Counted from the stretch's first letter, positions 1,978-31,443 are shown. The stretch is DNA of 37,773 nucleotides from Nitrososphaerales archaeon (GCA_038883135.1 JAVZMU010000003.1:1-37773); one strand, 5' to 3'. Translations and numbers: made by a program. Notes: generated by a model from the sequence alone, not told the origin.

Positions 1978-2921
1978 ACTTTTACACCTTCGAGAGGTAA
2001 TTTAACAATAGATACATCGATGCCTTTTCTTTTTAGCGTATTCGCTACAATACTTGCCTCACCAGATCTTGGCAAAGCTATAATACAACCTCCTCCACCA
2101 GCACCAGTAAGCTTAGCTCCAATACAACCAGCTTCAAGAGCTTTTTCTACAATATTGTCTAACTCTGTTGTTGACACTCCGAGATGGCTTAAAACTGTAT
2201 GAAAGAAATTCATTATAGCACCTAAAGTTATAATGTCTTTATTGATTAATGCATAGGCTGCCATCTTTGTAAAATAATTAGAGGATAAAACCAAAGATGT
2301 GAAAAGATTAGGATACGATTTCTTCATTTCTGAGAATTTTGAGACCATCTCAAATGTTTTGTGTTTAATCCCACTATAACATATAAGAAATTCAACATCT
2401 TTTTTCAATTTTATTCGTTTAGGCTTCTCTCCCATCTTGAATAAAATTACTCCACCATAAGTTGCAACATTAACATCAATACCTGATGGTTTTCCATGAG
2501 TTATTCTTTCAGATACCATAGCAAGATTTACAATTTCTTCTAACGACAATTTATGATTAAAAACTGATGCAGTAGCTGCAACTGTTGCTACAGCAACTGC
2601 ACTTGACGAACCAAGACCTGAAGAGATAGGCAATTCTGAATCTATTATCAATTTAACACCTTTTTTCTCTCCTATGAATTCTAAAGTAGCCTTTATAGCT
2701 TCTAAAGTAGGTTTAAAAAATAGAGAAGCTTCTCCTTCCTTCGAAGAAAAAGAGCCCAAGGTTTTAGATATAATCTCAATGCCTTCAAAAGCTTTAGCTT
2801 CTACCAATGCACATTTATCAATAGCTGCAGCAAGAGCTAAAGAACCGTGAACTACAAAATGCTCTCCAGTAATTATTATCTTGCCTGGAGCCTTAGCAAA
2901 AAATCTCAAAGACGTTTTCAC
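1959..2921 (-). CDS. mvk: Mevalonate kinase
   Basis: GHMP motifs PGKIIITGEHFVVHG, PISSGLGSSSA, HGKPSGID and KLTGAGGGGC. Confidence 0.96.
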   Translation of the reverse strand: MKTSLRFFAKAPGKIIITGEHFVVHGSLALAAAIDKCALVEAKAFEGIEIISKTLGSFSSKEGEASLFFKPTLEAIKATLEFIGEKKGVKLIIDSELPISSGLGSSSAVAVATVAATASVFNHKLSLEEIVNLAMVSERITHGKPSGIDVNVATYGGVILFKMGEKPKRIKLKKDVEFLICYSGIKHKTFEMVSKFSEMKKSYPNLFTSLVLSSNYFTKMAAYALINKDIITLGAIMNFFHTVLSHLGVSTTELDNIVEKALEAGCIGAKLTGAGGGGCIIALPRSGEASIVANTLKRKGIDVSIVKLPLEGVKVWQEKS

Positions 2922-3760
2922 TGAAATAGGATAGATGCGTAACCTACTACACTATTATAGTCTCCAGTTATATCTCCGCTCGTTGCGTATTTGAGAAGCT
3001 TTCCATTTGTTATGTTAAGCTCTTTAGCTGCTGTAATTATCGCTGCTACAGGTCCATATCCACACATAGTTACATCCAGATTTTCAATAACATTGTAAAG
3101 TTTAGGTACGTCCATTTGTAATATTGCTTTAATCGCCTCTGAATCCTTCCTTAAAGCAACCTCTTGTGGCTCATAATGAGTGAAGTCTGAAGAAGCTATA
3201 AGTAAGAATTTTTTATCTTTTACGCAATTCGCTATGGCTTTACCAACATCAATAGCTGTTCTCATATCTTGAAGCATCATGCTTATTGGTAGTATCCTGA
3301 TTTTTTCATGGAATATGTATTGAAGGAATGGAATCTGAACTTCTATAGAATGTTCTCTCATATGAGCTGAATCATCAAAGTCGACAATACCAGACAACTC
3401 TACTAAACGCTTTGCTAAATTAGCATCAACCTCGACTCTTCCTAAAGGTGTCTCCCAAACTCCTTCTCTAACAGTCGCTACACCGCTTCCTATACCATGA
3501 TGGTTAGGTCCTGCTATAACCACTAATTCTACACTCTTTAAATAAGAGCAAGCATAGTATCCATGCGCAGCTACGGGACCTGAGTACATGTACCCTGCAT
3601 GTGGTGAAATGAGGACAACTTTCTCACTAATTATCTCATTTGATGGCGGCTTCTTTCTCGGTCCTAACTCGTGAAGAAAAGACTCCTCAATGCTTGCCTT
3701 TAATTCATCATAATTGGAAGGATAGAATATCCCAGCTACAGCTGGTCGTCTTAGCTTCAC
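2918..3760 (-). CDS. MEMO1-family protein (AmmeMemoRadiSam system protein B)
   Basis: RRPAVAGIFYP, PHAGYMYSG, GPNH, EHSIEVQIPF, SSDFTHY, CGYGP and VVGYAS motifs. Confidence 0.94.
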   Translation of the reverse strand: MKLRRPAVAGIFYPSNYDELKASIEESFLHELGPRKKPPSNEIISEKVVLISPHAGYMYSGPVAAHGYYACSYLKSVELVVIAGPNHHGIGSGVATVREGVWETPLGRVEVDANLAKRLVELSGIVDFDDSAHMREHSIEVQIPFLQYIFHEKIRILPISMMLQDMRTAIDVGKAIANCVKDKKFLLIASSDFTHYEPQEVALRKDSEAIKAILQMDVPKLYNVIENLDVTMCGYGPVAAIITAAKELNITNGKLLKYATSGDITGDYNSVVGYASILFQ

Positions 3761-4425
3761 TTTACACTTTCCTCCACAATCTTTGTTTCAAAATCTTCTA
3801 TTGAATACTTTAGCTGTTGATCAGGGGTTAGAGCTCCTGAGTGAATTAAGACTGCTCTAGCTAATAGCCAAAAGATAGTAGCTAAAGCCCTTCTTCCTCT
3901 GTTATTGCCTGGAATTACAAAATCTATGTTAGAAGTAACGTTATCAGTATCACATATAGCGATTACAGGAACTCCTACCTTTGATGCCTCATCCACAGCT
4001 CTAGAGTCTATTACTGGGTCTGTAATTATTACAAGCTCTGGATCTATATGTTCAGGGTAAAGAGGATTTGTAAAAGTGCCTGGCATGAATCTACCTGTTA
4101 TAGGTATTGCTCCTGTTAATGAACAGAACATTTCGACAGGAGTCTTACCATACTCTTTTGCAGAACACACAACGATTCTTTTTATATCTGATCTCGCTAT
4201 GGCCTTTGCAGCAATATCTATTCTTGATAGGATTTTATCAAGGTCTATTATACGCAAGCCATCTGGTCTAGTTCTACTGATGAACTTTTCCATATCCTTA
4301 GTCTTGATCAAAGTACCAACTCTTATACCTGTAGCCAGTAGAGTTTTTTCCGAAAGTTGAGCAATTATAAGCTTCTCAGATGAACCACTCTCATCTTTTT
4401 CTTCATCAACTTTTTTACGCGACAA
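3757..4425 (-). CDS. rps2: 30S ribosomal protein S2 (uS2)
   Basis: GRFMPGTFTNP, CDTDN and IPGNNRGRRAL motifs; TTG start preceded by a GGAGGTG Shine-Dalgarno. Confidence 0.96.
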   Translation of the reverse strand: MSRKKVDEEKDESGSSEKLIIAQLSEKTLLATGIRVGTLIKTKDMEKFISRTRPDGLRIIDLDKILSRIDIAAKAIARSDIKRIVVCSAKEYGKTPVEMFCSLTGAIPITGRFMPGTFTNPLYPEHIDPELVIITDPVIDSRAVDEASKVGVPVIAICDTDNVTSNIDFVIPGNNRGRRALATIFWLLARAVLIHSGALTPDQQLKYSIEDFETKIVEESVK

Positions 4426-4427
4426 AT

Positions 4428-5675
4428 TTACACCTCCAATTTAGCCATATTACATCCGCCCAACTCTTCATCTATCCTTAAGAGCTCATTAAGCTTTGAT
4501 AAACGTTCTCCTCCTACTACTCCAGACTTTATCATCTTGGATTGAGTAGCTATGGCTATATGGGATAAATGAACGTCAGAAGTATCGCCTGATCTATGAG
4601 AAGTTATTAAAGTGTAGTTATTCTTTCTTGCATTTTCAGCGAATTTTAAAGCATTACCTAAAGTTCCTGCTTGATTCACTTTTAATATTGCAGCATTTCC
4701 AGCTTTCATTTTAATACCTTTTAACAGGCGGGATGTATTGGTTACAAAAATATCGTCTCCTACAATATACACTTTACTCAATTTCTTTGTTAGCTCAGCG
4801 AATTCATCGTAAGCTTCTTCATGAAAGGGATCCTCTAAATATACAAGATGGTAGTTCTTGACTAATTCTACAACAAAATCTAATTGTTCTCCCGACGATC
4901 TTTTTACTCCTGATCTCTCATAAATGTAAGCTTTTTCATTATTATCCCAAAGTGATGAAGAAGCAAAATCAACTCCTAATTTTATATTAAAACCAAAAGC
5001 GTCAGAAACTATTTGTGATGCTAATGATACTAGTTCAAAGGCTTCTTCATCTTTTACACGCGGCGCCCAACCTCCTTCGTCACCCTTTCCTCCCGTGAAG
5101 TATGGATCTTTCTTCTCAATTTGCTTCTTTAGTTCTTTATGCACTGCTATATTAGCCTTTAAGCTTTCTCTGATGCTTTTTGCACCTAGAGGACATATTA
5201 AAAATTCTTGAATATCAGGAGCACCAGGACCAGCATGCTTTCCTCCGCATAAGACATTTCCTAAAGGATAAGGCATAAGATATGGTCCTTTAGGTAGAAG
5301 CATTTTGTAGAGAGGTATGCCTTTAGCTTTTGAAAAAGCTTCAGCCGTTGCCATGGTTATAGCATAGGCAACTGATCCACCTATCCTACTAAAGTTCTCT
5401 GTACCATCTATTTCTCTTAGTAATTCACTTAGAGAATAAGGATCAGAAGCATCAAATCCTATAAGCTTTGGTGAATAATCAAAAAATAGTTCTAAAGTGG
5501 CTTCAATACCTTTGGGATTAAAACTAATAGCCTCGTACTTACCAGTACTAGCTCCTCTTGGTGCACAAGCCCTACCAATAAAGCCATTAACCTTCACATC
5601 AACTTCTATAGATTCATCGCCTCTACTATCATAACATACTCTTGCTTTGATGGCTTCAATAAAGGCTTTTTCCAT
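4428..5675 (-). CDS. eno: Enolase
   Basis: DSRG, GASTG, GGKHA, QEF, GDEGG, EDP, VGDD, LKVNQ and SHRSG catalytic/metal motifs all present; GAGGTG SD. Confidence 0.96.
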   Translation of the reverse strand: MEKAFIEAIKARVCYDSRGDESIEVDVKVNGFIGRACAPRGASTGKYEAISFNPKGIEATLELFFDYSPKLIGFDASDPYSLSELLREIDGTENFSRIGGSVAYAITMATAEAFSKAKGIPLYKMLLPKGPYLMPYPLGNVLCGGKHAGPGAPDIQEFLICPLGAKSIRESLKANIAVHKELKKQIEKKDPYFTGGKGDEGGWAPRVKDEEAFELVSLASQIVSDAFGFNIKLGVDFASSSLWDNNEKAYIYERSGVKRSSGEQLDFVVELVKNYHLVYLEDPFHEEAYDEFAELTKKLSKVYIVGDDIFVTNTSRLLKGIKMKAGNAAILKVNQAGTLGNALKFAENARKNNYTLITSHRSGDTSDVHLSHIAIATQSKMIKSGVVGGERLSKLNELLRIDEELGGCNMAKLEV

Positions 5676-9619: not shown

Positions 9620-10567
9620 TTGCTTATGAGAAAGGAGCTTATAGTCAGAGAGAAAGATAGCTTCTTAATAAAGAATATTCTTATCTTTGATGAACCATCT
9701 AAAATGAAACCTGCCCTAAACCCCCTTAGTTGGAAGATACTAAACCTTCTTGCTCAAAAACCTATGTACCCTGCCGACATAGCAAAGTCTCTCAAGATTT
9801 ATGAACAAAAAGTTTATTATCATATAAGGCAACTACATAAAATAGGATTATTATCTATTGAAAGAGAAGAACTTATAAAAGGGGCGTTGGCTAAGTACTA
9901 TAAAATAACTTATCCAGCTTTTGGAGTTGAACTACCTTTTGGCGAGAGAAAACTTAATGTTTTAGATCCATCCTTTCCTGATGAGAAAATCCTTTCTTTC
10001 TTTAGAGAATTTTTAGCCTCAGGTACTTTTCATGGACGTATAATTGTCGGTTCACCCGAACCTCACGGACCTTATAAAGCCTCTGCAAGAGATGGTCATT
10101 ATGCTGTTCAATTAGCTTTCTTCCTTGGACAATTCAGTAAGATGCCAAACGATTTTATTATAAGGCTCGATGTGGATATAAAGGCTGAGAAGGAAGAAAG
10201 AAACAATCTTATCTTGTTAGGCGGTCCTGGAACAAATCTTATCACCGCTGATTTCAATAAGTATTTACCAATAAAATTTAATGAACAAAATTACTGGGCT
10301 GGATTATTAGATGCACAAGGGAGAACCTTTAATGATGATCATGATGGACTCATCGCTAAAATACCAAATCCTTATGATGAAAAGAAGAGCGTGATAGTTC
10401 TAGCAGGGCTAAGATACATAGGTACAAAATCAGCAGTAATAGCTATTACTAACTTCGCTAAAGAAGTCTTGAAGAATTATCATGATGAGAAAGAATGGGC
10501 TATTGTGGTTCGTGGATTTGATTTAAATGGTGACGGTAAGGTAGACTCTGTAGAAGTATTATCATAG
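9620..10567 (+). CDS. ArsR-like winged-HTH protein with C-terminal alpha/beta domain; putative one-component regulator
   Basis: N-terminal ALNPLSWKILNLL..PMYPADIAKSL...QKVYYHIRQL HTH; C-terminal GSPEPHGP and NLILLGGPGTN. Alternative ATG at 9626. Confidence 0.8.
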   Translation: MLMRKELIVREKDSFLIKNILIFDEPSKMKPALNPLSWKILNLLAQKPMYPADIAKSLKIYEQKVYYHIRQLHKIGLLSIEREELIKGALAKYYKITYPAFGVELPFGERKLNVLDPSFPDEKILSFFREFLASGTFHGRIIVGSPEPHGPYKASARDGHYAVQLAFFLGQFSKMPNDFIIRLDVDIKAEKEERNNLILLGGPGTNLITADFNKYLPIKFNEQNYWAGLLDAQGRTFNDDHDGLIAKIPNPYDEKKSVIVLAGLRYIGTKSAVIAITNFAKEVLKNYHDEKEWAIVVRGFDLNGDGKVDSVEVLS

Positions 10568-11601: not shown

Positions 11602-12069
11602 TTATAATCTTTGCCTAACCTTTTCTGAAAAATTCTTTAACTTTAACCAATGACTTCCTATCCAATAAGTTTTGCCACATCTCACACAGGAATAGAAATG
11701 GTCATGCTTTTTTAATACGCTCTCTGGAACGTTTCTCACCTTGTTTTTATCTACCTCTTTTATATCTCCATTACATAAAGGACATCTTGAATTCATTGGG
11801 TTGAGCTCAGGCTTTAATCCAATGATTTTAAATACAGTCACGATTCTATTTTCATCGCTATCTTCTAACAAAAGTATGGACTTTAAATCATTTAGTATAG
11901 CTTTGTTATGAAGATCTTTATCAGAAGTTAAGACAATCCTATCGTCATCCTTAGCAATTGTTAATATATTCTCATCCAAAATCTCAGCATTATAAAGTAC
12001 ATCGAATCCATAAATTCTTAGTTTTCTTGCTAAGCTCCCAAGCATACTGTCAACTATGAATTTTACCAT
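11602..12069 (-). CDS. Mut7-C RNase (PIN-like + Zn ribbon) domain protein
   Basis: FIVDSMLGSLARKLRIYGFD, RIVLTSD, SRCPLCNG and CVRCGKTYWIGSH motifs. Confidence 0.92.
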   Translation of the reverse strand: MVKFIVDSMLGSLARKLRIYGFDVLYNAEILDENILTIAKDDDRIVLTSDKDLHNKAILNDLKSILLLEDSDENRIVTVFKIIGLKPELNPMNSRCPLCNGDIKEVDKNKVRNVPESVLKKHDHFYSCVRCGKTYWIGSHWLKLKNFSEKVRQRL

Positions 12070-17638: not shown

Positions 17639-18318
17639 TTATAATCTGCTTAATACTTCTACAAATGAATTCTCATCAGGTAAGAATGATAGGACTATCC
17701 TCTCTTTCTCAGTTAAGTCTATAGCTAAAGGATCTACAACTTTTGGTCCTTGGAGAATTACTTCTAGGCTTTAATTATGACACTTTAATTGCAACAAGAG
17801 GCGATCTCCCTAGACCTACCTTCGTAAAGATTAAAGCTCTTTCTGTAGTAGCATCAAAGATTCTGTAAAACTCAAAGCCTGATAGAGCATATATTGCTTT
17901 TATACTATCTAGTATTGTGTAGCCATAAATATTTATGTTGAGATAATCTTTGCCTTCTAAAATCTGTCCCTTTACCAACTCCACTATAGACTCTGCGGGA
18001 ACAGGCTCCTTGAACTCTTTTATAGCGATTATTGCAGATTTATTCTCAGGTTTAATAATCCTATCAAGGATTCGCTCATGATCCTTATCCAGTTTTATTA
18101 ATGCTTTAATGTATTTTTATGAATCCTACTCCTGGTGAGGAACGCCTGCTACTCTCGTAATCACTTAATACAGAAGGAGATACTCCCATTTCCCTTGCAA
18201 GTTGAATCTGTTCTATGTTAAGCCTCTTCCTCTAGACCTTAAGGGCATTACAAGGATTAGGGTCCGTTACAACATTTCCAGCTATCTTTGCTAGAATATC
18301 GTTTGTATCAGATAGCAT
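17639..18318 (-). pseudogene. Disrupted archaeal Cro/C1-HTH transcriptional regulator (COG1709-like)
   Basis: Reconstructed from ATG 18318: MLSDTNDILAKIAGNVVTDPNPCNALKV*RKRLNIEQIQLAREMGVSPSVLSDYESSRRSSPGVGFIK /fs/ YIKALIKLD...GYTILDSIKAI...TTERALIFTKVGLGRSPLVAIKVS*LKPR /fs/ VILQGPKVVDPLAIDLTEKERIVLS...RL*. Two in-frame stops and two frameshifts. Confidence 0.88.
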
Positions 18319-18365
18319 TAAACTTTTAGTTAACAGCTAATTTAAATATTAAACTTTTGTCAAGA

Positions 18366-19847
18366 TCAGTTATGAACTTTCTTTAGATCATCTTCTGTAT
18401 AATCCTTAAAGAAAAAGCTCGTCTCCCCTAAAGTAAGCATATCTGTAGGCTTTACTGAAATTATTACTGGTAAATCGTTTACAACTTTTCCTAGTATCAT
18501 GCAAGTCCTTGGTGGCAATGTTTTTACAATGGATTTTATTGTATCGGGATCAGTCGTAGAAGCGCGTGATATAGTCTCGAGGTCAACATCATTAGTGAAA
18601 TTAAATATAAAGAGATTATCAGCCTGCCTGTAAATACAATCTTTTATGGCATCTGGTTGATTTGTTATGAAGGTAGTAAAAACTCCAAAGTGTCTCATCC
18701 TTGTCACAATATCGTCCCAGTAGGTATCTCTAAGATAAAGATGGGCTTCTTCTGCAAATAAGAATATAGGAGGAATTTTTTTTCTCTCAAGAAGATCTAC
18801 AATTTTGCTTAATATGAGCTCTACAGACATCTTTCTCACTTGAGGTTGAAGACGGCTGAGAGATATTGTGAAAATCCCTCCTTTCTTGAACTTTGAAAAA
18901 AGATCTTCGAATTTTATTGAATCTTCACTATTGTCTGAAAACAAACGGGAGGAAAGCATTAAATGATACCTTGAGAATAAAGCATCTTTGATCAACTCGT
19001 TACATTTCCACTTTTGAATCGCATCTCCAAGATTACTCATTTTTAATAAACCTTGAGACTCTAATAATTCCCAAATTCTTATGAACTCCCTCAGCGAAGC
19101 CCCAGGAATCTCCAGAGTATGTTGAAGCATGTTTATCATGCCTGACAAGCCTATGTAATCAAGGGTAAAGCGTAAAGAAGCTCCTGGTATGAAGTTTACA
19201 ATTTTATTACATATAGGATTGGGCTTTCCATCCTTATTCCATCCTAATCCTTTGTATTCATCATTAAGATCAAAGATAATAACATACGCACCATACTCGA
19301 CTAGCTTACTAACAATCAATTTTGCTAAGTGTGACTTTCCTGTACCTTTTTTGCCTGTAATTATGTTAAGCTTTCCATCTAGAGCTTCAGCATTTATATT
19401 AAAAGCCTCTCCATTATTAGTAATTCCTATAGATATCGTTCTATAACCCTCTCTTTTTGCGAGAGAAAAGAGTTCAGAAATTGATAACTTAGTAGCTTTA
19501 GTCGTTACCCTTGATGGAAGCCAAGATGCATTTAATGTTAAATTATCTTTATTAACAATACCTCTAATTTTGCATCTAAGCAACTTCATATCCCTAATAA
19601 GGTAAGATATGGTTTTAATCTCTAAAGGATCGTGCTCTATTCTTTGGGCAGAGTTGTTTAATATCTCTTCTCTTACAAGATCGTTCATAAGCTCGGGCCA
19701 ATCGAGATAGGATTCATCGTAAACCTGAACCACCATTTTCATCTCTTGTGTATTATCCTCTATTAGAACGTACTCCCCACGTGATAATTCCTCATTTGGT
19801 AATGCTAAAAGAAGAACTTCATTTCCAGATTTTTCAATAACCCTCAT
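18366..19847 (-). CDS. herA: HerA/FtsK-family ATPase (HAS barrel + P-loop)
   Basis: N-terminal HAS-barrel-like segment (GEYVLIED, WLPSR), Walker A GKKGTGKS, IFDLNDEY, Walker B FAEEAH, RMRHFGV and ITNQP. Confidence 0.88.
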   Translation of the reverse strand: MRVIEKSGNEVLLLALPNEELSRGEYVLIEDNTQEMKMVVQVYDESYLDWPELMNDLVREEILNNSAQRIEHDPLEIKTISYLIRDMKLLRCKIRGIVNKDNLTLNASWLPSRVTTKATKLSISELFSLAKREGYRTISIGITNNGEAFNINAEALDGKLNIITGKKGTGKSHLAKLIVSKLVEYGAYVIIFDLNDEYKGLGWNKDGKPNPICNKIVNFIPGASLRFTLDYIGLSGMINMLQHTLEIPGASLREFIRIWELLESQGLLKMSNLGDAIQKWKCNELIKDALFSRYHLMLSSRLFSDNSEDSIKFEDLFSKFKKGGIFTISLSRLQPQVRKMSVELILSKIVDLLERKKIPPIFLFAEEAHLYLRDTYWDDIVTRMRHFGVFTTFITNQPDAIKDCIYRQADNLFIFNFTNDVDLETISRASTTDPDTIKSIVKTLPPRTCMILGKVVNDLPVIISVKPTDMLTLGETSFFFKDYTEDDLKKVHN

Positions 19848-20902
19848 TTAAATGCAACCTTCTTTAAAGGTTTTACCTTAAGGCTACCTAATGCTATCTT
19901 CCTAGGATCTTCTGCTGGTAGCTCTATCACACCAAGATTCTTTAATAAGTAGCTTTTTATAGACATATCATCAGAGCTTGTGAATACTGAAAGATGATGA
20001 GCAAGTCTCAGTGATTCTGGGTATCCTCTGAAGAAACAGTCATTATGTCTTATCCTTGATAAAATGTCATCGAATTCATTATCGAATTTACTAACGTCAA
20101 CTCTAAAGACTAAACCATCATCAGTAAATTTGACAAGTAGGATACGCCCTTCAATTCCTTTAAGTATAGGACTTATCAATTGATGAATATCGGAGTAAAT
20201 AGGAGCTTTTCCTGTTGAATGAAGTCTTCCTGATAGCTTATTTAAGATTCTATTTCTTGAAGATTTTGAAATTCCTACGACTTTATTATCATTTTTTCTT
20301 GCTAAGTTTAAAATATCTAAAAGACTAGAACCTTCTATATCAAATATAGAATTTCTTAAAGAGCCATCAATCATTATAATTCCTCTTGAAAGATTTTTAG
20401 CTAATTCCATAGCAAAGGCTCTCTCTAACCTTAGCCTTATCATGGATTTAGCTAATGAATCATCTAGCAGAACGAGTCTAAATAGTCTTTTGTCTGAATA
20501 TTCCTCATCCATTAAGTTTTGCTCGTTTAAATAAAATATTATCGGTCCTATTCTTACTTGATTTTGAGGCTTTTGATTGTAAAAAAAGACAGATGCAACA
20601 CGAGCTGCATAAATAGAACCATCTTCAACGTCTGCTACATGAATACAAGAAGAATCTAAAGCAGATAAAACTGTTGGTTGAGATATTGTTGAAAATTCTT
20701 TTATTTCTATTTCTTCACTTGTAGGCCACCCTCCAATAGGCTTCATGTTAGAGTTATCTGTGCTAAAAATTACTTTTTTGCTCGTAAGCTTCAAAATACA
20801 TGATGTAACTTTATGAAATAGCTTTTTGGTAATTGTTTCAGCTATAAAAGATGTATCTGGGAGAACTTTTTCACCAATCGGAAGATTTAATTGCTTGCCC
20901 AT
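19844..20902 (-). CDS. nurA: NurA-family nuclease
   Basis: ALDSS, RLRLE, IMIDGSL, VGISKSS and GYPESLRLAHH motifs; ATGA overlap with herA. Start placed at ATG 20902 (MGKQ), which removes the overlap with the divergent gene. Confidence 0.87.
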   Translation of the reverse strand: MGKQLNLPIGEKVLPDTSFIAETITKKLFHKVTSCILKLTSKKVIFSTDNSNMKPIGGWPTSEEIEIKEFSTISQPTVLSALDSSCIHVADVEDGSIYAARVASVFFYNQKPQNQVRIGPIIFYLNEQNLMDEEYSDKRLFRLVLLDDSLAKSMIRLRLERAFAMELAKNLSRGIIMIDGSLRNSIFDIEGSSLLDILNLARKNDNKVVGISKSSRNRILNKLSGRLHSTGKAPIYSDIHQLISPILKGIEGRILLVKFTDDGLVFRVDVSKFDNEFDDILSRIRHNDCFFRGYPESLRLAHHLSVFTSSDDMSIKSYLLKNLGVIELPAEDPRKIALGSLKVKPLKKVAFK

Positions 20903-20969
20903 CTTGTTCAACAATATAGAAAAAGGTCCGATTAATAAATGTTGCGCAACTTGTGCAACAATAAACAAG
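20903..20969. promoter_or_regulatory. Putative bidirectional promoter with two palindromic operator-like boxes
   Basis: Central ATTAATAAAT (20931-20940) lies ~30 nt from both ATGs. TTGT-N3-ACAA occurs at 20904-20914 and 20951-20961 (13/14-nt direct repeat cttgt[t/g]caacaata). Near-perfect 21-bp palindrome at 20940-20960. Confidence 0.6.
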
Positions 20970-21374
20970 ATGGGAGAGAGTTTGTCAAGACCTAGTATAG
21001 TAAGGATAAGATTAAAGAAAGGGAACTGGGAAGTTGAGATAGAATGTGAAGAGAGTAAGATTAAGGAGACTATAGAGAGCGTTCTTTCAGGCTTAAGCTC
21101 TGTATCTGAAGCTAAAACAGAAATATCAGAAAAACCAAGAGGAGCGTTAACTTGTAGAGGATTGATAGAGAACTTATGGTCTGAAGGTTGGTTCTCTGAA
21201 GCTAGGAGTTTAGGTGACGTTCATGATGAACTAGCAAGACGAGGTTACCATTATGATAGGACTGCTGTATCCCACTCATTAACTGAGTTAGTAAGAGAAA
21301 ACATACTTACAAGACAAGGAACTCAAAGAAATTATAGATACGTGCAAAAGAAACCTCCTTTAGGGGCTAGTTAA
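20970..21374 (+). CDS. Uncharacterised protein with C-terminal winged-helix domain
   Basis: Start at ATG 20970 (134 aa). N-terminal RIRLKKGNWEVEIEC hairpin+helix; C-terminal LWSEGWFSEARSLGDVHDEL..GYHYDRTAVSHSLTELVRENILTRQG...YRY wHTH pattern. Confidence 0.8.
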   Translation: MGESLSRPSIVRIRLKKGNWEVEIECEESKIKETIESVLSGLSSVSEAKTEISEKPRGALTCRGLIENLWSEGWFSEARSLGDVHDELARRGYHYDRTAVSHSLTELVRENILTRQGTQRNYRYVQKKPPLGAS

Positions 21375-27514: not shown

Positions 27515-29620
27515 TTAAGCATTATCATCAGTCTGGTTTTTAAATGCATTCTTATACGATGAATTTGCCTTTGTTGAGCAATTAGGATCAAGACACATGG
27601 AAAAAGGTCTCTTTCCCCTCCTATTGATTTGAATAATTGGAGTTAAACATTTCTCACATACCCTACCCAAAGGGGTTATCTTTGTATTTTGTGGTAATGG
27701 ATAGGAATTTCCACAATTAGGATATGATTTACATCCCACAAATACTTTCCCACTCTTTCTAGATTTTATGATTCTTAATTCACTTTTGCATTTCGGACAA
27801 ACACCAATTCTTCTCTCTTCTTCTCTAGATTCCATTAAACCTTTTAGTAACGCCTCTCCCATCTTTCTCTCATTTCTTTTTATTTCATTAAGAACTTCCA
27901 TTAAGAAATCTGTAGCCTCCTCTATGATTTCATCCTTCTTTTTCTTTCCTTGCATTACAAACTCCATTTCTTCCTCAAAATTTCTTGTTAACTCTTCGCT
28001 TATTATTTTAGGACAAAAATCTCTTAGTACATTAGTAACAGTCTCACCAAGTTTTGTGACCTTTATACTCTTTCCCATTATGTAATTTCTCTCATAAAGA
28101 GTTTGAAGTATTTCAGCCCTTGTTGCTTTGGTACCAAGATTTCTTTTCTCCATCTCTTTTATGATTGATCCTTGGCTATATCTATCTGGAGGTTCTGTCC
28201 ATTTTTCAAGCATATTTATTCCTAAATTCTCTAATCTTTGGTTTATTCTAACCTCTGGCAAAATTTGCTCTTCAAAAGTTGTGTAAGGAGAGTAAAATTT
28301 TATCCAACCTAATGAGACATTTCTCCTTCCTACTGCTATGAAAACATTCTTATCAATAGTTAAAGTTAAGTTTATGCTCTCTCTCACAGCAGGATTAGCA
28401 AAAGTAGCCATGAACCTTCTTACAACTAAATCATAGATTTTTTTCTGTTGATTAGTTAACTTTTTTAGATTAGGAACCTCGGAAGTAGGATATATGGCAG
28501 GATGAGCAGGATCTTCTTTAGGCCCTTCATAAGGAATTAGTTTACTCTTCTGTAGAAGATCATGACATAGATCAGCATAATTCTCTAAAGATGATAAAGC
28601 TTTTAATATCTTTTCGTAGCCTATATCTACAGGAAGTTTTTGGCTAGAAGTTCTTGGATAAGATATAGCTCCTATTTGATAAAGGCTTTCAGCAATATCT
28701 AGGGTCTGAGAAGGAGAGAACTTGAATTGAGAGTAAGACTCAGACTGTAAATCTGTTGTGTTAAAAGGATAAGGAGGCATTTGTCTATACTGTCTCTTTA
28801 CTATGTCTTTGACTATAGCATCCTTGCCTTTACAATCTCTTAACGTTTTATCAGCTTCATCTTTATTCCAAAATTGACTTTTCTCATGCATAGCTACTAT
28901 CTCATTACCATCGACTTTACAATGTAACTCCAACTGCCAATAGGGTTTTGGAATGAATCTTCTTATTTCTAACTCTCTCTCAAGAAGTAAAGCTAATGTT
29001 GGACCTTGAACTCTACCTGTTGAGAGAATCTTAAAGCCTTTTTCTGTCTGATTTTTCATTGCTAAAGTCAATGCACGGGTTAAGTTCAAACCCCAAAGCC
29101 AATCCAACCAATGTCTAGTTAGACCTGCTTCTATCTGACCAAAGTCTAAATGATTAGACATATTTTCGTAAGAATTGATAAGTTCTTCCTTTGTTAATGT
29201 GCTAAACTTCATTCTCTTTGCATCTTTAGCATTACATAAAAACTTTAAAACGTTAAAACCTATGACGCTTCCTTCCGTATCGTAATCACAGCATATAATG
29301 AAATCTGATGCATCTTTTGCTACATCCTTTATAGCCTCGAAGTATCTTTTAGAGAAGATTGATTGTTTCCTAACTTCAAAGCTGGGTCTCCATTCAGCAT
29401 CAAATATAGGATAGACCCATTTACCTTTCCCAGTAGGGCTTAAGTTAAAAAGATGTCCTACTGCTGCAACAATTAAGTGCTTCTTTCCATTCCTTATAAA
29501 TTCATAGTAATCCACGCCTTCATTAGTTGAGAACTTCTTTAAAGTTCCATCTTCTGCTAAAGATTCTGCTATCTTTCTCATAGCATCCGGCTTTTCAGCT
29601 ATTAGTAAAGTATAACTCAT
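27515..29620 (-). CDS. topA: DNA topoisomerase IA
   Basis: TOPRIM AEKP, GHL, DYDTEG, GRVQGP, catalytic ISYPRT, AHPAIYPT and LGTKATR motifs; C-terminal Zn ribbons. Confidence 0.96.
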   Translation of the reverse strand: MSYTLLIAEKPDAMRKIAESLAEDGTLKKFSTNEGVDYYEFIRNGKKHLIVAAVGHLFNLSPTGKGKWVYPIFDAEWRPSFEVRKQSIFSKRYFEAIKDVAKDASDFIICCDYDTEGSVIGFNVLKFLCNAKDAKRMKFSTLTKEELINSYENMSNHLDFGQIEAGLTRHWLDWLWGLNLTRALTLAMKNQTEKGFKILSTGRVQGPTLALLLERELEIRRFIPKPYWQLELHCKVDGNEIVAMHEKSQFWNKDEADKTLRDCKGKDAIVKDIVKRQYRQMPPYPFNTTDLQSESYSQFKFSPSQTLDIAESLYQIGAISYPRTSSQKLPVDIGYEKILKALSSLENYADLCHDLLQKSKLIPYEGPKEDPAHPAIYPTSEVPNLKKLTNQQKKIYDLVVRRFMATFANPAVRESINLTLTIDKNVFIAVGRRNVSLGWIKFYSPYTTFEEQILPEVRINQRLENLGINMLEKWTEPPDRYSQGSIIKEMEKRNLGTKATRAEILQTLYERNYIMGKSIKVTKLGETVTNVLRDFCPKIISEELTRNFEEEMEFVMQGKKKKDEIIEEATDFLMEVLNEIKRNERKMGEALLKGLMESREEERRIGVCPKCKSELRIIKSRKSGKVFVGCKSYPNCGNSYPLPQNTKITPLGRVCEKCLTPIIQINRRGKRPFSMCLDPNCSTKANSSYKNAFKNQTDDNA

Positions 29621-30735: not shown

Positions 30736-31443
30736 TTAATCCTCACTCCAACTCAATCTTATAGGGATTTTGAGAGTTTTACCGATAAGCGCATTGTTCC
30801 TATGCTTTATCACGTTTATCTCTATATGCTCAAGTATTTTATTTAATTTTAAAACTATTTTTGATCGTAGTAAGGTTCTACCGCCTGTTGGAGACGTAAG
30901 CCAGGACTCTGCTTGTTTAGCTTTCTTCGCTCTCATCATGCTTGTAATTATAACAGGTATGTTGAGTTTATTAGCTAGACTTTGTAATAAGCTCAGATAA
31001 ACTCCTATTTTTCTATTGACATCTGATGGTACCCTACTATTAAGAAGGTAATATAGAGTTGTTATTGAATCTAGAACTATGAGCTTTATGTAAGGTGAAA
31101 AAAGAGAGCAAGCATAAGCCATAATATTTTCAATATCTTCACTATTAGGTCTTAAGATAAGTAAATTATCCAAATATTTAGTTTCTTCAATAATTAAATT
31201 CAAAAATGCTGAAAAGATAGTATCAAGATCAATATAAATTACTGAACCTTCTTTTAAAGAAGAATTCACTATATTGCTAATGAATAAAGTTTTAATGAAG
31301 CTATCCTCACTCAAAATCACATTTAATGTTGATCTCTCTAATATAAATAGACAGTCATAAGGTTTTATGGACATAGTTCCGCCTAGAGGCAACTTTTTTA
31401 TCAATTCTATGAAATTTTCTCGGCTTGAGAATACCATCATCAC
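30736..31443 (-). CDS. RecA/RadB-superfamily protein with degenerate Walker A
   Basis: VIYIDLD, Walker B LIVLDSIT, LANKLNIPVIITS, GGRTL and KHR motifs. The P-loop position reads ILSEDSFIKT. Start may be ATG 31374. Confidence 0.72.
   Translation of the reverse strand: MMMVFSSRENFIELIKKLPLGGTMSIKPYDCLFILERSTLNVILSEDSFIKTLFISNIVNSSLKEGSVIYIDLDTIFSAFLNLIIEETKYLDNLLILRPNSEDIENIMAYACSLFSPYIKLIVLDSITTLYYLLNSRVPSDVNRKIGVYLSLLQSLANKLNIPVIITSMMRAKKAKQAESWLTSPTGGRTLLRSKIVLKLNKILEHIEINVIKHRNNALIGKTLKIPIRLSWSED

Follow-up and report, generated by a model that had tools for sequence, protein, structure and literature searches.

A divergent NurA-HerA gene pair linked to a family of small winged-helix proteins in Nitrososphaerales and other Thermoproteota

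HerA and NurA are textbook proteins only within the Mre11-Rad50 operon of hyperthermophiles. HerA paired with other effectors, as in Sir2-HerA and DUF4297-HerA, acts in bacterial anti-phage defence. DNA-end processing in mesophilic archaea such as the ammonia oxidisers is poorly known, and genome papers merely tick 'HerA/NurA present'. Here we describe a nurA-herA pair that faces a gene for a 134-aa winged helix-turn-helix (wHTH) protein in a Nitrososphaerales archaeon (GCA_038883135.1 JAVZMU010000003.1:1-37773). This stretch of 37,773 nt is called the window below, and the three genes the module; the assembly comprises 1.04 Mb in 73 contigs and is 81% complete. The three genes are best read as one old, vertically inherited module of Thermoproteota, whose function would be a chromosomal DNA-processing or repair function additional to the Mre11/Rad50-linked pairs and not that of a mobile defence system. 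HerA-NurA itself is known. What is new here is its association with a dedicated, undescribed winged-helix family and an operator-like promoter, conserved across Thermoproteota.

HerA, NurA and Mre11 are listed as recombination genes of Nitrososphaera and Nitrosocaldus in the available parts of three publications (PMC13707971, PMC5797428, PMC7554672). According to extracts of two others, Pyrobaculum has at least three vertically inherited NurA-HerA pairs; the pairs form separate orthologous groups that follow the species tree, and recombination is the task of only one of them (PMC3396285, PMC3973734).

The nurA-herA pair and its inheritance with the winged-helix gene

The nuclease gene product belongs to the NurA family (PF09376, residues 80-306, 56.9 bits against a cut-off of 21). 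Among 18 aligned orthologues drawn from the class and the phylum, all have D83, D179 and H302, and at least 90% also have E160. The order D83/E160/D179/H302 matches the catalytic tetrad Asp51/Glu105/Asp126/His411 of P. furiosus NurA, as given in the consulted part of its description (PMC3300031). When S. solfataricus NurA (2ygk) is aligned to a profile built from the orthologues, the DxS, DGSL and GYP..AH motifs fall into register. A phmmer search against the PDB matched no NurA chain, whereas profile and fold searches did. The AlphaFold model (mean predicted local distance difference test, pLDDT, 84) shows the RNase-H-like NurA fold. Its best Foldseek match is again 2ygk (E 8.4e-11, TM 0.48/0.52) and its second-best is chain G of TdpAB (8wfd, E 1.8e-8, TMq 0.53). 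Further matches include the HerA-NurA complexes of T. kodakarensis and D. radiodurans and P. furiosus NurA (among them 9x1n, 7f6d and 3taz; E 8.5e-7 for chain G of 7f6d), the TM-scores of the top matches being moderate (0.35-0.53).

HerA carries the central DUF87 domain (PF01935, 39.4 bits against a cut-off of 23.2) and aligns to S. solfataricus HerA (4d2i, E 1.2e-11), the alignments leaving out residues 1-93, where an N-terminal HAS-barrel domain would be expected. Its Walker A (G165/K167/G170/K171/S172) and Walker B (E366/E367) residues, R383/R385 and Q397 are invariant in the 18 orthologues. From these motifs both NurA and HerA look active. Family membership together with the retained catalytic residues suggests DNA-end processing by a HerA6-NurA2 complex. 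By homology with the solved HerA-NurA complexes, HerA, as a hexameric double-stranded DNA translocase, would feed DNA ends into NurA, a dimeric RNase-H-like nuclease, for resection or degradation. Translation of the pair is coupled through an ATGA overlap. A complex prediction with NurA, HerA and the wHTH protein as monomers, unlike the real hexamer and dimer, gave a score of 0.00 and speaks neither for nor against an association.

The minus strand reads GCATTTAAATGAGGGTT at the nurA/herA junction, so that the stop codon of nurA and the start codon of herA overlap in ATGA. The nurA open reading frame (ORF), as called, spans 19844-20968 (-) from a TTG, and the ATG at 20902 is the start kept in relatives. 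The wHTH ORF likewise spans 20826-21374 (+) from a TTG, with a conserved ATG at 20970. The divergent gap between the two conserved starts therefore covers 20903-20969, or 67 bp. Neither mre11 nor rad50 adjoins the pair in the window. The overlap, the catalytic motifs, this absence and the facing wHTH gene had all been pointed out in an earlier reading made from the sequence alone (the sequence-only reading), and the sequence, the Pfam matches and the 18-orthologue alignments bear them out.

Orthologues of HerA and NurA occur in all 10 genomes of the family, and the divergent wHTH gene in 9/9 assessable ones; in the tenth the contig ends inside nurA. HerA identity to the window copy is 85-88% in four genomes of the same genus and in the single genome of another (g2), 75-79% in the family's two other genera; it is 39-58% over the class as a whole and 34-49% outside it (full length). 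Judged from this fall of identity with taxonomic distance, the module is vertically inherited. The class is Nitrososphaeria, including Nitrososphaera, Nitrosocaldus, Nitrosomirales and Conexivisphaerales metagenome-assembled genomes. The wHTH gene was found in 110 and the wHTH-linked HerA type in 108 of 301 class genomes, and the module is near-universal in 14 of the 15 class families sampled. The large family f2 (180 genomes of about 1.6 Mb), which judging by size and dominance is probably Nitrosopumilaceae-like, shows no strong wHTH match (0/180, with 5 weak ones) and three HerA matches with identities of 30-37%, of which one comes from the unpublished genome G141. Among the 121 genomes outside f2, both genes are present in 104, neither in 15 and one only in 2, these last two being incomplete (68% and 73%). 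Two genera of a single family, f4, account for 13 of the 15 (0/13).

The wHTH gene faces nurA-herA in 20/20 class loci from 14 families and in 77/80 loci of a species-representative collection, where the other three are cut inside nurA by contig ends; some genomes are common to both sets. Across the phylum, 133 of 401 genomes sampled have the wHTH-linked HerA type. In the loci outside the class nurA and herA are adjacent in 20/20, and 12/20 have an orthologous divergent wHTH gene whose product matches the class profile at E <= 1e-36. A quick maximum-likelihood tree groups the wHTH-linked HerAs in a single clade (27 rows, SH-aLRT 99), separate from the 'second pair' HerA clade of other Nitrososphaeria and from the other HerA copies of the window's genome (contigs C6, C24 and C44), the latter having very long branches and unsure placement. 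The synteny and a HerA tree were among the checks that the sequence-only reading had proposed, and the wHTH neighbour proved to be kept well outside the family.

It had also taken the pair for a paralogue. The window's genome yields four NurA matches, each adjoining a DUF87 match, and these four pairs are very divergent (identity of at most 26%, over partial lengths). One of them, on contig C6, lies in a nurA-herA-mre11-rad50 cluster (Mre11_Pyroc 117, Rad50 200 and HerA_Thermprot 102 bits as best matches, below the equivalog cut-offs). The wHTH-linked pair is therefore a paralogue of a canonical cluster and not the only pair of its genome. A further NurA adjoining a high-scoring DUF87 gene (123-143 bits) is found in 4/5 complete class genomes; two of these, both of genus g32 (presumably Nitrososphaera), have Mre11- and Rad50-like genes after the pair. 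No such additional high-scoring pair was seen in the complete genome G173, where the wHTH-linked pair may be the sole NurA-HerA. HerA of the C6 type occurs in 64/301 class genomes. We rejected the notion that the Mre11-linked cluster is sporadic in the class, as a C6-type query misses different, more canonical NurA-HerA(-Mre11-Rad50) clusters elsewhere.

These counts bear on the view that the pair is an ordinary recombination resection enzyme with its Mre11/Rad50 encoded elsewhere, and that the wHTH gene is unrelated to it and has stayed alongside by chance or through the shared promoter. Mre11-like genes are indeed encoded elsewhere in 5/5 complete class genomes, and the situation of G173 would agree with it. 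However, most genomes examined have the more canonical pair in addition, in two cases beside Mre11-Rad50, the wHTH neighbour and the HerA type are gained and lost together, and chance adjacency does not explain an arrangement that persists from family to phylum level. We regard this explanation as improbable. The module appears instead as a very divergent further copy of archaeal NurA-HerA. Its inheritance across the phylum together with the wHTH gene and a control sequence makes it look like an unstudied core DNA-processing pathway and not like mobile defence.

The shared promoter and the small winged-helix proteins

The 67-bp gap contains three palindromic boxes and an A/T-rich TATA-like element (Table 1). 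The 13-mer TTGNNCAACAATA occurs twice in the 1.04-Mb assembly, both times inside this gap, and at least two copies of TTGNNCAAC within 70 bp are found in one other place only. The same elements recur in the class. In 97 distinct class-level regions (109 loci with duplicates), which are related and hence not independent trials, a TTGNNCAAC-type box abuts the nurA start in 84, against 2 of 2180 mononucleotide shuffles, and an A/T-rich octamer is directly followed by NTTGNNCA in 95, against 74 of 2180 shuffles. Box 2 starts 37-41 bp from the nurA CAT in 62/62 class-level loci (those in which it starts downstream of the CAT). The spacing is what one would expect if the TATA element drove a nurA transcript almost without leader and box 1 covered its start site. 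Box 2 would then occupy the position of the transcription factor B recognition element for nurA, and boxes 2 and 3 would lie between TATA and start on the wHTH side; these assignments lean on general archaeal promoter geometry. Outside the class, the TATA-plus-box element accompanies 10 of the 12 loci with a divergent wHTH gene and none of the 8 without; in the two remaining loci variants of it were seen by eye.

Table 1. Coding and promoter features of the module (window coordinates)
Feature	Position	Strand	Remarks
herA-like hexameric-translocase ATPase gene, 493 aa	18366..19847	-	wHTH-linked 'C3-type' clade
nurA-like nuclease gene, 352 aa from conserved ATG	19844..20902	-	stop overlaps herA start by ATGA
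box 1, TTGTTCAACAATA	20904..20916		one base off nurA start codon (CAT 20900-20902)
A/T-rich TATA-like element, TTAATAAA	20932..20939		about 33 bp to either start codon; putative promoter role
box 2, perfect palindrome GTTGCGCAAC	20941..20950		directly after TATA-like element
box 3, TTGTGCAACAATA	20951..20963		directly after box 2
gene for 134-aa wHTH protein	20970..21374	+	conserved ATG at 20970

One class-level locus (L056) carries at least nine tandem copies of ATGAACAAT after box 2 in the nurA-wHTH gap, and 1-2 copies stand at the same place in Nitrososphaera loci. This repeat could be a site for another paralogous small protein. One RNA-library contig matches 20685-20904 without a mismatch and stops 2 nt short of the nurA ATG, the stretch being otherwise uncovered (one run). 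It was dropped as a source of claims on transcript start or expression, because a DNA contig likewise ends at 20906 and the library may contain DNA. A scan for bacterial sigma-70 promoters and terminators gave chance-level counts and is not relevant to an archaeon.

The model of the wHTH protein (mean pLDDT 79) comprises a β-hairpin (residues 10-27), a helix (28-45), a disordered linker and a winged helix (57-126). The last, with block-mean pLDDT mostly above 90, has the three-helix bundle and β-wing of this fold. It resembles the DNA-binding domains of Fur, BlaI/MecI, PadR and Hop2 (VIA, Foldseek), with a VIA Z of 9.4 for Fur (9ire) and for the Hop2 winged helix (2mh2, root-mean-square deviation 1.8 over 64 residues); the Foldseek E-values are weak (5.9e-3 or worse). 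The structure collections thus returned generic winged helices only, the small N-terminal module lying effectively outside the comparison. Penicillinase_R (PF03965) stays below threshold in the protein (18.1 against 22.6 bits) and in an orthologue (13.2 bits). In the ESM Atlas only 'hypothetical protein' clusters were matched, with Penicillinase_R on 16% of the members of one nearby cluster. The C-terminal domain is strongly conserved (TC..L...W.EGWF....L.EVHEEL.RRGY.YDRTAVSH.L.DLVREG.L.R.G..R.Y.Y.QK.PP), T61, C62, G92, H102, R115, G117, R120 and Y124 being invariant. A protein search retrieved 1442 relatives, including NVIE_013310 of the cultured Nitrososphaera viennensis. The 120 of them that were listed bear no Pfam domain and, where named at all, are 'hypothetical' bar one evident mis-annotation.

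Two types of small paralogues, p170a, with reciprocal matches to the divergent type, and the more distant p170b, have the N-terminal β-hairpin/helix module in common with it. In most class families other than the window's own, both are encoded beyond the wHTH gene, between it and gatE, and are followed by gatD, so that gatD-gatE adjoin the module. In the window's own family, the wHTH gene is the sole small gene retained by nurA-herA. A p170b-type paralogue is located away from the triad at the end of contig C30 (12520-13032, -) and is 52% identical to L023:5538-6053; the p170a type was not found in this genome (81% complete). Outside the class, 7 of the 20 loci have co-directional tandem arrays of 2-4 small genes directly upstream of nurA, and 20 of the 21 array ORFs match one of the three class-level small-protein profiles (divergent, p170a, p170b). 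The small-protein family adjoins the pair in 19/20 of these loci; the one that shows no small gene lies near a contig end.

For the divergent 134-aa protein, the most likely function is that of a dedicated transcription factor that also controls its own gene. The palindromic TTGNNCAA(C) boxes would be recognised by its near-invariant winged helix; of these boxes, box 1 would cover the likely nurA transcription start at the ATG while boxes 2 and 3 stand against the shared TATA. Binding would block both divergent promoters until a signal, perhaps DNA damage or replication stress, relieves it. All three, the binding, its sign and the signal, are inferences. Taken as a whole, the reading that we consider reasonably probable is that the wHTH protein controls the expression of a helicase-nuclease that is inherited vertically.

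Several points weigh against it. The regulation is a proposal read from the sequence. The TATA-adjacent boxes double as the wHTH gene's own promoter, and their co-occurrence with this gene is therefore no proof of binding. Up to four paralogous small proteins accompany the clade, which exceeds the need for a local repressor and hints at a structural or targeting role. HerA remains far from the NCBIfam HerA equivalogs NF040937 and NF040819 (39.6 against 800 bits, the HerA_Thermprot cut-off, and 19.6 against 970); the Mre11-linked HerA of contig C6 is likewise below its cut-off (101.6 against 800), so that the test is strict for this lineage. The module has been lost together in f2 and in two genera of f4 and is therefore dispensable. 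Finally, the genomes are related and not independent, so that the synteny and motif counts overstate the support.

The number of small proteins bears on another explanation, in which the divergent, p170a and p170b proteins are stoichiometric partners that form an end- or lesion-recognition and loading complex for HerA-NurA, taking the place of Mre11-Rad50. Two further small genes beside the triad in most class-level loci, and two to four paralogous small genes with the N-terminal module in 19/20 loci outside the class, often in the same operon, would be expected of such partners. So would a divergent protein whose identity within the class (40-72%) is much like that of HerA (40-58%), and in G173 Mre11-Rad50 stand alone, with no further high-scoring NurA/DUF87 pair found. 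However, the window's family keeps only one small gene with nurA-herA, the p170b type being on C30 and p170a not found in an incomplete genome; the divergent layout with palindromic boxes is a classic local-regulator arrangement; and the proposal draws on gene neighbourhood and conservation. We consider it unlikely. A combined version, slightly less likely still, would make the small wHTH proteins with p170a and p170b a hetero-oligomeric DNA-recognition and loading module that guides HerA-NurA to ends or lesions with no need of Mre11-Rad50, while the divergent member would in addition switch off its own operon. If true, Thermoproteota would have a second, ancestral pathway of end processing, spanning Nitrososphaeria, Bathyarchaeia-like lineages and others.

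Genomic surroundings and further NurA-HerA pairs of the genome

According to the ORF and Pfam reading, the module is neighboured by genes for NFACT, NAD synthase (NadE), a 69-aa ORF and the large and small subunits of an aconitase-family enzyme. All Pfam families of the 37.8-kb window are of housekeeping kinds, with no match to integrases, transposases, effectors, modification genes or defence families. This is relevant to the other option raised by the sequence-only reading, an anti-virus or anti-plasmid defence system like Sir2-HerA, DUF4297-HerA, TdpAB or nurA-csm6-herA, with the wHTH protein as sensor or repressor. HerA-like and NurA-like defence systems do exist, the second-best structural match of NurA being to one of them (8wfd chain G). 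HerA gives partial PADLOC matches (mad8 60 bits, HerA 54.9 bits), and CRISPR-linked NurA-HerA paralogues are reported for Pyrobaculum in the available part of PMC3396285. However, the canonical C6 repair paralogue scores higher on the PADLOC HerA and mad8 models (85.4 and 79.9 bits), which reduces the HerA matches to superfamily likeness only. A full-length PADLOC HerA match with a cognate effector and a patchy distribution were not found, and no PADLOC model matches NurA or the wHTH protein. The viral contig collection contained no wHTH relative, and inheritance is vertical and near-universal in a conserved housekeeping chromosomal context. The defence option, which we hold to be very improbable, was thus not upheld. 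The other half of that interpretation, a paralogous regulated module, largely stands, and the conserved palindromic boxes fit a regulatory role for the wHTH protein.

Further DNA-metabolism genes belong to the same housekeeping stretch, 6-10 kb from the module: a gene for a type IA topoisomerase that has a zinc ribbon (27515-29620, -; Topoisom_bac 403.8 bits) and a gene for a RadB-like Rad51-family protein of 235 aa (30736-31443, -; 27.1 bits). Elsewhere in the window are encoded a 315-aa protein with an N-terminal ArsR-type helix-turn-helix and a remainder without family assignment (9620-10567, +) and a Mut7-C RNase-domain protein (11602-12069, -; 142.4 bits).

The other NurA-HerA pairs of the genome differ in their company. 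The locus on contig C24 (6602-14802; L124) contains nurA, a 216-aa ORF, herA, an mre11-like gene and an 812-aa rad50/sbcC-like gene. It adjoins a serine recombinase gene (Resolvase, 103.7 bits) at the contig end, and the cluster may therefore be on a mobile element. On contig C44 (1608-4712; L125) an EVE-domain ORF (4227-4712, 48.9 bits) is followed by co-directional herA (2735-4213) and nurA (1608-2738). Compared with the wHTH-linked module, this EVE-HerA-NurA trio has more the look of a defence candidate that senses modified bases. Contig C6 also encodes a 710-aa DUF87 ATPase (17728-19860, +; 51.8 bits; L007) with no adjoining NurA match, followed by small ORFs and a region with a nucleotidyltransferase/HEPN-like pair; this is another gene of the FtsK/HerA superfamily. 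In the complete genome G173, Mre11 and Rad50 genes without adjoining NurA or HerA (C1:909096-912350; L130) encode proteins 51% and 43% identical to the C6 copies.

Comparison with known systems

The most consistently inherited NurA-HerA pair of Nitrososphaeria is thus a separate clade with its own winged-helix family and a conserved operator-like sequence. It is a candidate for a resection pathway that is independent of Mre11 or differently targeted. It also offers a concrete regulatory circuit that is open to testing, with an orthologue in the cultured Nitrososphaera viennensis. The case further cautions that stand-alone HerA-NurA pairs should not be taken for defence systems by default. The literature searched on archaeal, Thaumarchaeota, Bathyarchaeia and Nitrososphaeria NurA/HerA yielded no description of the wHTH-linked pair, and no paper was found for four N. 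viennensis locus tags. The available parts of PMC3396285, PMC3973734, PMC13707971, PMC5797428 and PMC7554672 make no mention of a winged-helix neighbour of NurA-HerA.

The layout of the module recalls the divergent, self-regulating winged-helix repressors of the BlaI/MecI, MarR, PadR and Fur types. The wHTH gene stands head-to-head with its candidate target operon, palindromic candidate sites overlap promoter elements, and the fold matches the DNA-binding domains of these regulators. However, the wHTH protein has no Pfam family above cut-off, its N-terminal module and paralogue set are undescribed, and the promoter is of the archaeal TATA type.

The same two protein superfamilies are used by TdpAB (of the tdpABC phosphorothioate system, 8wfd; available part of PMC12914056), Sir2-HerA and DUF4297-HerA. 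Unlike these, the module shows no Pfam match to a modification gene or Sir2/DUF4297 effector nearby, its distribution is vertical and not patchy, and its context is housekeeping. The likeness seen to TdpAB(C) is one of fold, between NurA and 8wfd chain G; the flanking genes belong to unrelated housekeeping Pfam families.

Bacterial stand-alone NurA-HerA (D. radiodurans 7f6d, Thermotoga NurA 1zup) resembles the module in being a pair without adjoining Mre11/Rad50, but is of a different lineage and clade. To our knowledge no winged-helix family is linked to it. The Pyrobaculum and Thermoproteales pairs, as far as the consulted parts of their descriptions go (Bernick et al. 2012, PMC3396285; Vestergaard et al. 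2014, PMC3973734), offer a parallel for several old Thermoproteota pairs in one genome. Compared by description, the module differs from the CRISPR-associated nurA-csm6-herA of Pyrobaculum in that its partner is a winged-helix family and not csm6 or a CRISPR array.

Among the known systems close to the module are the canonical HerA-NurA complexes of Sulfolobus, Pyrococcus and Thermococcus (herA-mre11-rad50-nurA; 4d2i, 2ygk, 3tal, 9x1l-n), which likewise encode a HerA ATPase and an RNase-H-like NurA side by side. The module keeps their D-E-D-H and Walker/Arg motifs, and its best sequence and fold matches are the HerA and NurA of S. solfataricus. Unlike them, it is not linked to mre11/rad50, has the order nurA-herA with an ATGA overlap and is very divergent, in a separate clade. 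It is linked instead to a small winged-helix family and a conserved operator-like promoter.

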